A stretch of 64,000 nucleotides of DNA from Candidatus Cloacimonadales bacterium. Its GTDB lineage: Bacteria > Cloacimonadota > Cloacimonadia > Cloacimonadales > JAIOQZ01. The stretch lies in NCBI GenBank assembly GCA_963665815.1, contig OY762463.1:992001-1056000 (forward strand), given 5' to 3'. The notes beneath the pieces are model-generated. The model saw only the letters and a program-made list of their open reading frames with translations. It searched no databases and was not told the origin of the DNA. The translations under genes were made by a program, and so were the position numbers. Of this stretch, positions 2,589 through 64,000 are shown one piece after another (the first letter of the stretch is position 1; each line of letters begins with the position of its first letter).

Positions 2589-5500
2589 ATGAAATACATT
2601 ATTCTATCATTTCTTTTCATTTTCTCACTCTCCTTATGTGCATTTTCAACTCATATCGGAACAATATCATCCAATGAAACATGGACAGCTCAATCTGGTC
2701 CACATCATATTACAGGCGATATTGACGTTGTTGATGGAGTCACTCTCACAATTAATCCAGGGTCTGTTATTTATTTTTACGGAGACTACTCAATAACCAT
2801 ACACGGTTGCCTCATTGCAGACGGTACGGGAAGTCAGATAATTTTCGACTATTACAATCAGCTATTTCACGATCCCGGTGAATGGGGCAGGATTCTATTT
2901 TCATCTGCTGATGCAGGATGTATAATGGATAACTGTGATATCAAGTATGGTGGTTCGGGTGTTGCTATGGTAGAAATATCCAACTGTCAGGATCATGTCA
3001 CTATCCAGAACTCTTCACTGTCTTACAGTGCATCCATGGGTATTAAAGTGTTAGATGATGCTTCTGATCCCGATTTGCATAACCTTTCATTCGGGTCTAT
3101 AGCCAGCTATCTTATTGAATCACATGCAAAACCTCTTGCAGACTATTTTGTTAATGGATATTCAAGCTGCCCGAATCCTTATATTTCAGTCAGAGGCGGT
3201 AGTATTGATCCCGGATTAATGCAGAGGCAATATGCTCCAATCCTCGTAAACGGCGATATTATGGTTGCTAATGGCAATATGCTAACGATTTACGAAGGGA
3301 ATGAATTCTTCTTCAATGGAGACTATGAATTCAGAGTTGAAGGACAACTTCATACATCTGGAACTGCTGCAAATCCAGTCGTTTTTACTTCGACTTCAGC
3401 AGTTGAAGGTTCATGGGAAGGACTTGATTTTAATGGCGTTGACGGAAACTGTAACATGGATTACTGCGAAATCCGATATGCCGGCTCGAATGGACAGGCT
3501 GTTCAGATTACAAGCTGTGATGACGATATTTCATTCGACCATGCCCTTATTGATAACTCAGGCTCAAAAGGAATAAGCTTCGACTCTTATTCTTCACCAA
3601 GTATAACTAATTCAACTTTTTCCAATAATGCAAGTCACAGCATCGCAGGTAATGCACCTGTTGTAATTCAAAACATTACAGGAAATACCTTTACAGGAAA
3701 TGATATTGATGCCGTTTTACTGGAATCAGGCAGTTTCTCGACATCAACTATTCATAGAAATTCCAATCTGGAATATCATGTAGGCAGTATGATTTATGTA
3801 TCTGAGGGTGATACATTAACTATTGAACCGGGTGTAACAATGAAGTTTAATTCACAAGCCGGAATGACTGTAAATGGGTCTATTATTGCAATGGGACAAT
3901 CAGGAAATGAAATTACTTTTACATCTTCAGCCTCTACCCCATCAGCAGGAAACTGGACAAGCATTTACCTTTACAGAATTGATGCTGACTGTTACTTTGA
4001 TTACTGCTACTTTTCTTATGGTGGTCAGGATGTTTACAGTAATCCTGCACATGAAAAATGTCTTCTGGCAATGTATCAGACATCTGCAAACACAAATCAT
4101 GCTTATGTGACAAATACACACTTTTCACATAGTGGAGGAATGGGAGTAAAAGCATTAAGTTATGCAAGATTTGTTGTTGATAATTGCAGCTTCAGTAATA
4201 TTAGTTCCTATGGAATCTACTCAAATAACTCATATTCATATTATGTTGTAAGTAATTCAAACTTTAATACAATCGGTGATTACCCTATTCAAATATATTT
4301 TAAAAATGCTGTCAGAATGTTCAATCTTACTTTTGCAAATCTTACAAATAACTATATAAATCTTAAAGGAAGCCCTGTTACATCAGGAACTCTCTCAAAC
4401 TTTGGGATTCCATATATAGTTGAAGGCGCTGCCACTGTCAGTGATGGTGAAGTATTATCCATTGAACAGGGAGTTCAGTATTATGCAGATACTATTTTGA
4501 ATGTAGAAGGTTTACTGATGGCTGATGGATCTCAGGCAGAGCCAATTCTGCTAAGTTCTATCACCGGTAATACGGATGGTTGGTATGGCATAAATTTCTC
4601 AAATTCTGATAATGGTAGTATGATGGATTACTGTACAATCGAAAATGGTGGAAAAAATGCATATGGTACATATTTTGATGAACAGGCTGTCTTATATTTC
4701 AGAAATTCCGGACAAACAACAATCACAAATTCCACAATTGGACCAAGTTCAAGATATGGTTTAAAAATATCCGGTTCAACAGATTTTACTCTAAGCAATG
4801 TTGAAATTACCGGTTGTCAGCAATCAAGTATACATTCATCAAGTAATACTCCAAATTTCTTACTTGATAATGTGACATTCTCTAATAACGTAAGTTATCT
4901 TGGTGAATTATACCCAAAACATATTTATATGATGGATAATATAAATATAGTAAACAACTCAGATAACACAATTAAACTCAGCTCTGGTACCATCGGAACC
5001 GGTACAATACATAACTTTGGTATAGATTATTTCCTAAATGGAACAACAACTGTCTCCGATGGCCATACTATGACAGTTGAACCGGGAGTTAAATTTTATG
5101 CTGATAATACATCTTTAACGGTTCAAGGTGCATTAATCGCAGTTGGAACAATCACAGATTCAATAATTTTCAGAGCTAAAGATAACTATGCCGGACAATG
5201 GTATGGTTTAATTTTCGACAATCCTGATGCAGGTTCCTCGCTTCAATATGTTGATATCAGTGGAGGTGGAAGAAACACCTATGGTACATACTGGGATGAA
5301 AAATCTAACATTGCAATTCGAAGTGGAACAGGCGGTCCAGTTATTTCAAATTGCACAATCCGGAATTCCGGAGCAGATGGTATAAGGTTGGCATCAGGAG
5401 CATCTGCATCATTTTCTAACACAATCATTGAAAATGGTGCTGAAATAGGTATCAATACAATGAGCAGTAGCGCAACCGCAACCTTTGATAACTGTGAGAT

Positions 5501-59685: not shown

Positions 59686-60669
59686 ATGAAAAAATCACGA
59701 AATTGTCATGCAATGGATTACATCCAAATGGATTAATGAACCAATCAAAGTGTTTTACAGACTTGGTATCCCTGATTTTTTAGGCAATACTTCTATGACT
59801 CTAGAGGAATTATCACTGTTGACACAAACGATTCCAGAAAAACTGATCAGACTATTGCGAGTCCTTGAATCAGTAAAAATTGTAAGTGTAACTGATAATG
59901 ATATCAGTCTGACAGAAACAGGTAGTTTGTTTCAAAAAAAACAACTTGGCTGTATTGCCGGTATGATATTTTCAGACTGGCATGATTCTGCCTGATCACG
60001 ATTAGATGACTGTCTTAAGTCAAATGAAAATGGTTTTGAGTTAGCTCACAATTCTGAAGCATTCGACTGGCTTTCTAAGCATCCGGAGTATATGCAACAA
60101 TATAATTCAGCCAATAGGATGAAATCACAAATGATTAGCCATATCTATTGGAGAATTATGACTTCTCAACTACGACATCTATTGTTGATATCGGAGGAGG
60201 AAATGGAGGAATATCAATTACTTTAAAGAATATTTTTCCAGAGCTTGAAGTAGTTCTGACTGATTCCGAAACTGTGATATCACATCTTGCGTCTGATATT
60301 CACTTTCAGGAGTCCTCAATCGTTCTCGAAGCTTGTAATTTCTTTGAATCAGTCCCGTTCATATCCGATAAAGCCCTGTTATCAAACATTCTTCATGACT
60401 GGGATGATGAAAGATGTGCTGAAATTCTTAAGATTCTTAAGGATAACTCTGCTGCATCCAACAAAATCCTGATTATGGAATATCTTGTACCTGAAGATTC
60501 ATCTTTCAATGTGAGTAAATTGCTTGATATTGAGATGATGGTAATGGGAAGCGGTAAAGAAAGAACGCTATCTGAATATGAAAATTTGTTTGCTCAATGT
60601 AAATTTAAAATATCCAACCTGATCAAAACAAAATCTGGATTATCAATCATTGAAATTTCACACAGCTGA
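59686..60669 (+). pseudogene. O-methyltransferase (family 2, dimerisation + SAM domain), disrupted
   Basis: Frameshift in A6 after ATG 59686, TGA at 59993 at a likely Trp position, frameshift near 60145; VDIGGGNG, NFFESVP, ILHDWDD, G.ERT..EY. Confidence 0.85.
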
Positions 60670-62417: not shown

Positions 62418-62593
62418 TCATTTTGATATAAGACATTAAGAAAGGCTGTCCTGTGGGCAGCCTGTTTCACTCTCACAAAGAACGATCCCCAGACAACTAT
62501 AGCAGCAATTATCAGCAACCCGGTGAACAATTTTCTTGACCATTTTCCACTCATGAGCTCAATTTAGTCATAATATGGAGTAAGGAGACAGGA

Positions 62594-63523
62594 TTGTACG
62601 TAGGTAACACAGCTTTAGTTGTCCAGGAAGACCACTACTACCCGTTCGGAATTAGGTTAGTCGGAATGTCCACCGATACCGGGCAGAATAATAAATTCCT
62701 TTACAACAATAAGGAATACGAAAATGAAAATAAGGTACCTCCTATGGTCTTCGAACTGACGTTCTACAGACTTCGGAGTGGAGACTCTCGCCTACGGCTA
62801 CGAGCTCATTTTTGGAGACTTTCGGGCTATGCCCTGCAAGCTCATTGCTGGATGGCAGTTGATCCAGCTGATGAGTTTTTTAGCCCTGAAGGTGTCTCTT
62901 ATGGTTCTCGGATCGGAATCCTACGAACTTCAGAGACGAGACTCTCGCCTTCGGCTACGAGCTTATATAATGACCCGGTGAACTTCCTTGATCCGGATGG
63001 GGCGGAGCAAACTCCAGCTTACTTAGTTGTAGATATAATGTTGGACTATGTTGAATTAGATGGGAAACTAAGTAACTCAGGCGTAATAGCAAAACTAAAT
63101 GAAGCTGCATCTATTGCAGAGGGTAGATTCAATAGACATAATCCAAATGATTCAGACATACTAAAGGCAAAATATCTGCATGACGGTAAATTTTTAAGAA
63201 GTTGTGCAACAATATCTTCTTCTAACAGTACTATAAAAGGGATAGATACTGGAAAAAAAATAACAGTAGGAGCTGGGGCTCTTGCAGTCGGAGGAGTCGG
63301 TATAAATGCAGCACGAATGGGGGCAAAGCATATGGCACAGCCTTTACTGAATGGTACATATGATCTTATGGCTGGAGGAACTGATGTTCTAAGTTTGGGT
63401 ACAACACTTTTTATAGAAACTCCTCATGTTGACCACAAGGCAATTAAGAAAGATTGGAACTTAAGATATAAATATCAAGATTATGACAGAGGAGATGATG
63501 GATATGATTTTAATGAACTTTGA
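62594..63523 (+). CDS. Orphan RHS-repeat core with C-terminal toxin domain; core interrupted by hairpin elements
   Basis: HYYPFG, FLYNNKE, W.AVDP, NDPVNFLDPDG; TAAGGAG RBS before TTG. Confidence 0.75.
   Translation: MYVGNTALVVQEDHYYPFGIRLVGMSTDTGQNNKFLYNNKEYENENKVPPMVFELTFYRLRSGDSRLRLRAHFWRLSGYALQAHCWMAVDPADEFFSPEGVSYGSRIGILRTSETRLSPSATSLYNDPVNFLDPDGAEQTPAYLVVDIMLDYVELDGKLSNSGVIAKLNEAASIAEGRFNRHNPNDSDILKAKYLHDGKFLRSCATISSSNSTIKGIDTGKKITVGAGALAVGGVGINAARMGAKHMAQPLLNGTYDLMAGGTDVLSLGTTLFIETPHVDHKAIKKDWNLRYKYQDYDRGDDGYDFNEL
62732..62807. repeat. 76-nt structured palindromic element, copy 1
   Basis: Aligns without gaps to 62889-62964; nested stems with compensatory changes. Confidence 0.85.
62815..62843. 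repeat. Partial copy (second hairpin only) of the structured element
   Basis: GAGA-CTT-TC-GGGC-TAT-GCCC-TGC-AAG-CTC, same architecture as 62781-62807. Confidence 0.75.
62889..62964. repeat. 76-nt structured palindromic element, copy 2
   Basis: Same length and stem layout as copy 1. Confidence 0.85.
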
Positions 63524-63553: not shown

Positions 63554-64000
63554 ATGAGGTACTTACTGATTACTATAGTACTTTTTATAGGTACATTTAC
63601 TCTATATAGTGTTGAACTATTATCCGTTGAACAGTTAAATGAATTTGCGGATTCAATTCGTAGTAAGATGGTAGCAAATGATTTTACTGGAATCTGTATG
63701 ATGGAAAAAGGAATGAGAAACTTTATAACAAATACAGATCAATTATATATGAAGTATGAATCCTTTGATGTTCTTGCAAAGTCATTTATCTTGATCAATG
63801 AATATAGTAAAGCTAAACAATGCTATAGCGACATAACAAAAATACTATCAGTCACTCAAAATACAGTTTACTGTAAATATTGGGTAATTGCTAAATTCAA
63901 AACAATAATTGCAAATAAAAAGCTTAGTTTTGAAGAAAAGATGAAGGAATTAGAAAGATTTAGAGTTTCTGATTTTAAGAATCTTAATGTGACATGCTAT
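63554..64000 (+). CDS. Putative immunity protein with signal peptide (runs off the window end)
   Basis: AAGGA RBS; MRYLLITIVLFIGTFTLYS...; open to 64000; directly follows the RHS toxin. Confidence 0.6.
   Translation, partial: MRYLLITIVLFIGTFTLYSVELLSVEQLNEFADSIRSKMVANDFTGICMMEKGMRNFITNTDQLYMKYESFDVLAKSFILINEYSKAKQCYSDITKILSVTQNTVYCKYWVIAKFKTIIANKKLSFEEKMKELERFRVSDFKNLNVTCY

Follow-up and report, generated by a model that had tools for sequence, protein, structure and literature searches.

A modular repeat of bulged hairpins in silent rhs toxin cassettes of a Cloacimonadales bacterium

Introduction

What keeps a set of bulged hairpins in shape when they lie inside the reading frame of a toxin gene? 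The question is raised by a 64,000-nt stretch of Candidatus Cloacimonadales bacterium DNA (assembly GCA_963665815.1, contig OY762463.1, positions 992,001 to 1,056,000 of the forward strand; hereafter the window), near the end of which lies an orphan rhs cassette, a C-terminal rhs end with its toxin-like tail. A first-pass annotation, made from the letters alone, had pointed to two similar hairpins within this cassette whose stems differ and still pair, and had seen in them a family of elements selected for structure that targets rhs core ends and might mark or recombine interchangeable toxin cassettes. To our knowledge, orphan rhs or polymorphic-toxin cassettes are thought to be reshuffled by ordinary homologous recombination only.

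Here we describe this repeat in its source genome (G000; 3.96 Mb, 36% GC) and in a congeneric genome (G001), with a genome of the sister genus (G006) for comparison. The family is a small structured bacterial repeat whose unusual trait is its near-exclusive residence in silent rhs toxin cassettes. On balance, and with considerable room for doubt, we take it to be a non-autonomous, structure-constrained and genus-restricted repeat that spreads with and between these cassettes. At the least, it would be a clean natural case in which conversion carries a small repeat through a family of paralogous genes, where it erodes or remodels toxin reservoirs.

Results

Anatomy and structural conservation of the repeat

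The two copies in the window are indeed gapless, as first described; they occupy 62732-62809 and 62889-62966, 78 nt in register, and are 76% identical. The nested three-stem hairpin that had been drawn for them is the RNAfold minimum-energy fold of each, with a second small hairpin following it. Alignment of 16, and then of 28, distinct copies resolves the repeat into two modules. Module A (~48 nt) consists of AAKGT, an outer stem, a TAT bulge and a five-pair middle stem, then an internal loop with TC on its 5' side and TAC or TGC on its 3' side, and a four-pair inner stem capped by an apical loop of 3-4 variable bases; a TC bulge stands on the exit. Module B (~28 nt) reads GAG-A-CTC, TC, a stem of 2-4 pairs, a loop, TAC or TGC, and GAGCTC. 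It repeats the inner design of module A, a short stem with a TC/TRC internal loop, and also occurs solo or in tandem. The third hairpin reported from the window is real as well and is such a solo unit, B', a variant of the second half of the element (62813-62845), with the stem GGGC/GCCC and an adjacent stem in which a C-G to T-A change is compensated.

The evidence that this design is maintained comes from the way in which the stems vary. Across 28 distinct copies from the two genomes, 88% of the cells in the paired columns of module A do pair (98.5% and 99.1% in the two inner helices), as against 24-52% when the 3' partners are slid as a control, and for 26 units of module B the figures are 93% and 22-53%, although in copies related to one another the paired cells are not independent events. 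Both sides have changed at 11 of 19 pairs in module A and at 7 of 10 in module B, and the covariation score was reached by none of 500 shuffles for either module, so that the claim of compensatory stems around conserved asymmetric internal loops is borne out. The middle stem of A occurs as GGTCT/AGACT, GGTTC/GAACT, GATTC/GAATT and GGTCC/GGACT; its inner stem as GAAC/GTTC, GGAT/ATCC, GGAC/GTCC and GGGT/ACCC; and the stem of B as GCC/GGC, GGAC/GTCC, GGGC/GCCC, GGGT/ACCC, ACC/GGT and AC/GT. The apical loops are hypervariable; at the bulge bases there is little or no change. The folding energy of the repeats is ordinary (z of +0.08 to -1.06 as DNA and, as RNA, -0.55 to -0.79 for the sense and -2.1 to -2.3 for the antisense strand), and the evidence for structure is therefore the covariation and not stability. 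A genome-wide search for TC/TRC-bulged hairpins gave 37 matches against 12-19 in shuffled sequence; known module A cores make up the excess, and no second family of such design was found in the genome.

Census and range

Scanning the source genome with blastn and a covariance model, the latter as the first-pass annotation had proposed, yields 24 full A+B copies, along with weaker covariance matches at solo B units; a regular expression and locus listings add ~20 B or B' units. The congeneric species has ~10 copies. When larger sets were screened under stricter filters, two genomes carried the repeat among 41 relatives and likewise two among 151 from the phylum, with the source genome counted in each case; both carriers belong to one genus of uncultured Cloacimonadota. 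The element-encoded stretch, compared with 5.8 billion protein clusters, recovers eight proteins, seven of them from the single contig of G000, and the module A pattern has no match in JGI metagenome contigs and none in viral contigs. A loose module B pattern gave 118 single matches in genome contigs; these come from unrelated genomes, most of them GC-rich, and were taken as chance and left unused.

No Rfam family was matched, the best overlapping E value being 0.39 or worse and far below gathering scores, likewise for the copy outside rhs; and a limited search of titles and abstract starts, in the literature on Cloacimonas Rhs and on palindromic elements of orphan toxins, turned up no description of the repeat among the papers listed. 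From Rfam and this limited search, the family appears to be undescribed and restricted to one genus. Its first describer had named a lack of further copies, a scatter over ordinary intergenic sites as for a generic repetitive extragenic palindrome (REP), and a match to a known family as findings that would speak against the proposal; what is found is many copies, concentrated in cassettes, of no known family.

Residence in orphan cassettes

The source genome has two full-length rhs genes (1354 and 3337 codons) and 26 orphan cassettes by our count, in nine islands. Of its full copies of the repeat, 19 of 24 lie in the arms of rhs-type cassettes, in keeping with the targeting of rhs core ends proposed at the outset, four lie between cassettes of orphan arrays and one lies elsewhere. 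Within the arms, ten copies occupy site 1, between ...GKE-EDEN and LWYHYG of DPDG-type cassettes; one, the second copy of the window, occupies site 3, between FFSP and YNDP; three are at site 4, between NNPAN and LDGA of LDGA-type cassettes; three (type X) are between FLD and LDGA; and two are at site 5, directly before LDGA and behind a degenerate leader. The four copies between cassettes abut a small opposite-strand ORF (open reading frame), and for the remaining one the surroundings are unrelated intergenic DNA, with five tandem B units behind it. B or B' also occurs solo, directly after A+B at site 1 and, in both cassette families, between DPQ(L/I)G and RW (site 2).

Cassette-borne copies are in sense orientation without exception. 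With the replication origin placed at the cumulative GC-skew minimum (2.70 Mb) and the terminus at the maximum (0.52 Mb), ~12 copies fall on the leading and 10 on the lagging strand, with 2 ambiguous; there is no replication-strand bias, and orientation thus follows the cassette and not replication. At least one module is carried by 19 of the 26 orphans (10/13 of the DPDG type, 7/11 of the LDGA type and both site-5 cassettes). The full-length rhs genes carry none, neither the two of G000 nor the one of G001, a frame of 2951 codons with a gapless match; a G001 copy at locus L161 (~8066) belongs by tblastn to an orphan with a longer arm and not to a full-length gene end. In G006, the genome from the sister genus, none of the 16 core-end matches has space for an insert (13 cover the query contiguously, and the one split pair is 8 nt apart).

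Footprints and reading frame

Comparison of filled with empty paralogues shows no target-site duplication at any site; instead, 3-16 nt of the target are replaced. In DPDG-type cassettes the net gain is 69 nt for A+B at site 1, 36 nt for B' at site 1, 33 nt for B' at site 2 and 66 nt for A+B at site 3, all of them in frame. In LDGA-type cassettes, B at site 2 (+34 nt) and A+B at site 4 (+77 nt) shift the frame, and A+B at site 2a of G001 (+69 nt) has a stop at its junction. The inserts are free of stops in 8 of the 10 site-1 DPDG-type cassettes, the exceptions being a frame-shifting 75-nt copy at 2125070 and a truncated copy at 1057796, and one G001 copy has TAA in its 3' bulge. Where GAGCTCATAG joins CTTGACGGAGC, at sites 4, 5 and X, TAG comes directly before LDGA, and five of the seven toxin frames downstream of such a junction are open for 320-405 codons. 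As an observation of its own, two LDGA-type orphans (G000 335236-335300 and 2395344-2395400) have TAA in place of the core codon CAA of DPQIG, a second inactivating change beside a frame-shifting B insert.

Conversion, deletion and tandem change

Over 304 nt, cassettes 2008409 and 2010550 differ by 11 substitutions alone, all at element positions 17-37. Through them one hairpin core, fully paired, gives way to a second, likewise paired and identical to the core at 2110344. The difference arose in one short-patch event and not by compensatory changes made step by step. The neighbours 335348, which is filled, and 337943, in which site 4 is empty, are nearly identical and differ by the insert and a few converted flank bases. 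LDGA-type cassettes have homology to the expressed gene on both sides of the element.

Deletions between copies are also seen. At 2012499, B' flanks the segment YHYGVRYYDPQLG on both sides; at 2110342, B' precedes it; and in the window and at 2108078 there is one B', the segment being absent. The first-pass annotation had placed the elements at the sites of two missing Rhs motifs, and this was half right: SP-YVYCH is replaced by the second window copy, whereas YHYGVRYYDPQLG, as these three paralogues show, was lost through deletion next to or between B' modules. The window thus lacks its YHYGVRYYDP motif because recombination between repeat copies deletes core-coding DNA, and annotators should be warned that an Rhs motif may look 'missing' where repeats have mediated its deletion. 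Similarly, the type X cassettes (332830, 2074593 and 2059917) equal the arrangement A+B...WHSLDP...NNPAN...A+B of G001 locus L031 minus the DNA between the copies. In the G001 copy at L040, the inner hairpin of A is fused to the tail of B, and at a similar non-rhs locus the number of tandem B units is five in G000 and two in G001.

Between G000 and G001, the arms and elements that precede the same toxin (RAVAYAFTSARWNVGY...) differ, which places the joints of exchange at DPDG and not at the elements. Three rows of one sample contain the stretch as contigs; the joints in them are a 119-nt skip and a 475-nt jump back, as expected from paralogous cassettes, and are uninformative on excision.

Candidate enzymes

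The annotation had suggested looking for a linked HUH/TnpA-RAYT nuclease, tyrosine recombinase or reverse transcriptase. In G000, no HUH/RAYT enzyme, reverse transcriptase or integron-type integrase is linked to the repeat. The genome has two Y1_Tnp (IS200/RAYT-like) genes, at 2133689-2134177 (-) and 3509383-3510015 (-), each with its own flanking hairpin pair, of the CCATTCGCAAGG/CCTTCGCAATGG type and the CATCGAC...GTCGATG type; these hairpins are unrelated to the repeat, and a link to either gene was rejected. The two pairs are separate REP-like families of G000. There is no reverse transcriptase in the genome, and one of its four tyrosine recombinases lies beside an rhs array. This is a phage-type integrase, paired with an excisionase-like gene 1.4 kb beyond the last orphan of a 34-kb array and next to the gene for an oxaloacetate decarboxylase alpha subunit. 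It scores 76 bits against the TIGR02249 cut-off of 265, and its identity as an integron integrase was rejected. It may mark the whole 34-kb array as an integrated island.

Discussion

In the account toward which we lean, the repeat would have become established in the conserved 5' homology arms that silent orphan rhs cassettes carry. It would multiply there as whole cassettes are duplicated, as parts of an arm are duplicated locally, and through short-patch conversion by way of flanking homology, without cut-and-paste transposition. Copies would be excluded or lost from expressed full-length rhs genes by selection, copies in direct repeat give rise to deletions of core-coding DNA, and inserts in DPDG-type cassettes would amount to insertions of 10-26 residues if the ORF is expressed. 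Candidates for the upkeep of structure would be a trans-acting host factor or hairpin-templated repair, and the repeat itself would presumably be selfish or neutral, not useful. This account would explain why the orientation is sense only, why neither target-site duplications nor enzymes are found, why the same alleles occur at different sites, why different alleles occur at one site and why the family is confined to one genus.

A number of observations weigh against this account. No mobilising or binding protein was found in G000, and a primary insertion was never observed in G000 or G001; with two carrier genomes only, the direction of gain versus loss is not inferable. There are at least six distinct insertion positions in ~300 nt of rhs core end, as against one ordinary intergenic copy in a 4-Mb genome. 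In DPDG-type cassettes, each of the four insert types has a length divisible by three, for which the chance is 1 in 81 if frames are free. To a large extent the covariation reflects exchange among a few pre-existing hairpin alleles, with ~10 independent compensatory events by allele count. A passenger account leaves the targeting of rhs ends, the constancy of the bulges and the preservation of frame in DPDG-type cassettes unexplained, and for this reason we retain three functional alternatives, in which the element acts as a DNA switch or lock, as an RNA element in cis, or as a translated insert.

It is tempting to speculate that the hairpins are cis-acting DNA signals for the management of toxin cassettes, recognised as single-stranded or cruciform DNA by a putative recombinase or nuclease, and that they would either start conversion into an expressed rhs gene or lock the orphans in silence until the element is lost. 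Such a role would suit elements that are nearly exclusive to orphan cassettes and absent from full-length genes, and that in LDGA-type cassettes sit exactly before the toxin with a junction TAG, most of the toxin frames behind it being open; read from the sequence, the frame would be regained if the 80-nt insert were taken out exactly. The bulges keep their bases, as they do in hairpins that are recognised by proteins, and the integrase with its excisionase lies close to the last orphan of the large array. We nevertheless regard such a role as rather unlikely, as exchange joints lie at DPDG, the elements are inside the homology arms and not at their ends, no excised or empty variants occur among contigs of one sample, and the genome offers no integron-type integrase, no RAYT with these repeats and no reverse transcriptase. 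If a protein does recognise the hairpins, this would point to programmed control of toxin switching. A more elaborate version makes the bulged hairpins recognition sites of a manager of a silent Rhs-toxin library, in which elements in the homology arm or at the core-toxin junction would lock a cassette by frameshift or stop, and structure-specific removal or cleavage would license conversion into an expressed rhs gene. We think this quite unlikely; were it true, polymorphic toxins would have a means of switching like that of integrons or pilS.

The uniform sense orientation of cassette copies, which follows the cassette and not replication, might instead suggest that the elements act as RNA, binding a protein or shaping the processing, stability or translation of mRNA, for example by insulating toxins or stabilising immunity transcripts; yet that orientation is expected from descent and conversion as well. 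The RNA minimum-energy fold does coincide with the structure that covariation supports, loops vary while stems and bulges are kept, and a G-U pair at columns 15-41 is kept in 24 of 27 copies; the wobble-cell counts used for strand assignment are 29 G-T versus 19 A-C in module A and 5 versus 6 in module B. What makes a role as RNA rather doubtful in our view is that the sense strand folds little better than expected, and the antisense strand better, that there is no Rfam match, and that the lone non-rhs copy is antisense to both its neighbours. Selection on the inserts as protein, as a peptide loop (NVPPM...SGDSRLRLRA and variants) in stand-alone mini-Rhs proteins whose translation would begin within the orphan itself, draws on the conserved TAAGGAG-N6-TTG start, on the eight of ten occupied site-1 cassettes that are open through element and toxin, and on the four in-frame insert types; we hold it to be very improbable indeed, since compensatory stem changes rewrite the peptide (VFELTFYRL, VLGFKSYEL, VLGLTSYEL), which puts the constraint on pairing and not on residues, and since LDGA-type inserts shift the frame or carry stops, one further copy (2125070) is frameshifted and one has a stop (G001, L161 8099-8101). 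Finally, the covariation might have arisen without any selection, from hairpin-templated repair (quasi-palindrome correction) and exchange among few alleles in a neutral palindromic repeat. The 11-change patch within 304 otherwise identical bases, by which a whole core moved in one event, and the unremarkable folding energy are what one would then expect, whereas correction by template switching should erase the TAT, TC and TAC bulges, which are near-invariant in 16 to 28 copies and common to A and B, and at least four mid-stem, at least four inner-stem and at least five B-stem alleles all pair. This origin therefore seems decidedly improbable to us.

The repeat works most like Rickettsia palindromic elements (RPEs), is built most like BOX and keeps its structure like REPs. 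RPEs, in the part of PMC10969869 drawn on here, are small palindromic elements of one genus, often inserted in frame into ORFs, to which they add a peptide. By description the present repeat is alike in being a palindromic insert within coding frames of one genus; in-frame insertion of the RPE type is seen for all four DPDG-type insert types, while LDGA-type inserts are out of frame or contain stops. RPEs are ~150 bp long and occur in many unrelated metabolic genes, whereas the repeat is 28-80 nt, modular, almost confined to orphan rhs ends and often frame-breaking. Like REPs, it is a short imperfect palindrome in which compensatory changes maintain pairing. On the complementary strand, GTAG occurs at the foot of three units in copy 1 and two in copy 2; this might be reminiscent of the GT(A/G)G head that stands beside the REP palindrome in the account of Nunvar et al. 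(PMC2817692), but is only 4 nt long and overlaps the stem. Unlike REPs, the repeat is not extragenic, numbers tens and not hundreds of copies, has units in direct and not inverted order and flanks no rayt gene; neither a rayt gene between two inverted copies nor the extragenic, high-copy layout of inverted pairs was found. Nor does it resemble a miniature inverted-repeat transposable element, having no target-site duplication, no related full-length insertion sequence (blastn finds small copies only) and no terminal inverted repeats, the ends having been compared by eye only.

Pneumococcal BOX (boxA-boxBn-boxC) is, from what is given of it in PMC3049150, modular, with a module that varies in tandem number and a predicted stem-loop. 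The repeat is likewise modular, with B present once to five times between genomes, but is without the terminal inverted repeats, the target duplications and the scatter near many genes that BOX shows. The attC sites of integrons, with R''-L''...L'-R' boxes and a GTTRRRY core, stand at the 3' end of each cassette and work with the adjacent integrase IntI. Variable sequence, a conserved bulged-hairpin design and arrays of promoterless gene cassettes are points of likeness with attC, from which the repeat is set apart by its position in the 5' arm and by the only nearby integrase being of the ordinary phage type. The repeat also has likenesses to byp elements and to the GC clusters of yeast mitochondrial DNA: these too are hairpins rich in GC within an AT-rich genome, some of them in coding sequence, and they too are recombinogenic and spread by conversion, as the repeat would. 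They belong to different organisms and have no homology to the repeat, and byp elements are skipped by the ribosome, of which the repeat shows no sign.

The window cassette and further observations

The features of the window cassette, together with the array-side integrase, are collected in Table 1. The first ~135 residues of its 309-residue ORF correspond to the last ~90 residues of the full-length Rhs proteins of G000, with extra sequence in between, the tblastn match with full-length rhs falling at genome 1054615-1055004 (window 62615-63004). As first proposed, the frame is open to DPDG: it reads through all three repeat units, A+B copy 1, B' and A+B copy 2. Copy 2 takes the place of 15 nt (YVYCH) of the core end, and its site is occupied in the window cassette only. 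Pfam finds no domain in the ORF, the ~175-residue toxin-like tail after DPDG included. Homology to the last ~90 core residues, a DPxG motif, a variable tail, a small downstream ORF and no long upstream frame mark the cassette as an orphan, and it is free-standing, since the gene upstream encodes an EamA-type transporter and is not rhs. The leader before it is common to the orphans at G000 3361482, 2012499, 1057796 and 2108078 and is also present in G001; given this shared leader and the TTG start, 'silent' DPDG-type cassettes may be translatable alone as proteins of ~300 residues. The ORF downstream, by its position, is probably the immunity gene of the cassette.

Table 1. Coordinates of features of the window cassette (window positions) and of the integrase locus beside the large rhs array (G000 positions)
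Feature	Position	Strand	Basis
Conserved putative leader of family-1 orphan cassettes, with TAAGGAG (62581-62587) six bases 5' of TTG	62528..62596	+	sequence; function predicted
Orphan rhs C-terminal cassette ORF, 309 codons, TTG start	62594..63523	+	tblastn with G000 full-length rhs, Pfam
Module A, copy 1: outer stem CTCC/GGAG, TAT bulge, GGTCT/AGACT, TC and TAC internal loop, GAAC/GTTC, loop TGAC	62732..62780	+	
Module B, copy 1: hairpin GAG-A-CTC-TC-GCC-TAC-GGC-TAC-GAGCTC	62781..62809	+	
Solo module B': GACTT-TC-GGGC-TAT-GCCC-TGC-AAGCTC	62813..62845	+	
Core-coding remnant (C)WMAVDPADEFFSP; preceding paralogue segment YHYGVRYYDPQLG deleted here	62846..62888	+	comparison with G000 2012499, 2110342 and 2108078; tblastn
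A+B copy 2: stems GTCTCT/AGAGAC, GGTTC/GAACT, GGAT/ATCC	62889..62966	+	
DPDG motif, core-toxin boundary	62990..63001	+	sequence, translation
Downstream ORF, 149+ aa, runs past the window end, no Pfam match	63554..64000	+	
Phage-type tyrosine integrase (G000, locus L192 3417-4841)	2057416-2058504	+	
Excisionase-like helix-turn-helix gene (same locus)	2058514-2058840	-	

The copy outside rhs (G000 ~3455980-3456201, minus strand) consists of module A, five exact 30-nt tandem B units and then a unit of ~190 nt, which is single-copy in G000 and repeated about five times in tandem at G001 locus L038. The genes flanking these two loci are not common to both genomes, and in G000 the copy is antisense to both of its neighbouring genes.

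Elements between cassettes abut the 3' end of an opposite-strand ORF (M-RPDINITGVIGKTLILEFKGKS...) at G000 2712-2830, 5025-5140, 3963437-3963550 and 3358278-3358350 and at G001 locus L037. The frame of this ORF enters the element; at 3358278 a stop within the element splits it from a same-frame stretch of 265 codons, the end of which may resemble a sorting signal of the type IX secretion system (T9SS).

Elsewhere in the window, an O-methyltransferase appears to be divided between two plus-strand ORFs, of which 59708-59995 encodes the dimerisation domain and 60148-60669 the catalytic one; the split, over 59708-60669, may be a frameshift or mark a pseudogene.

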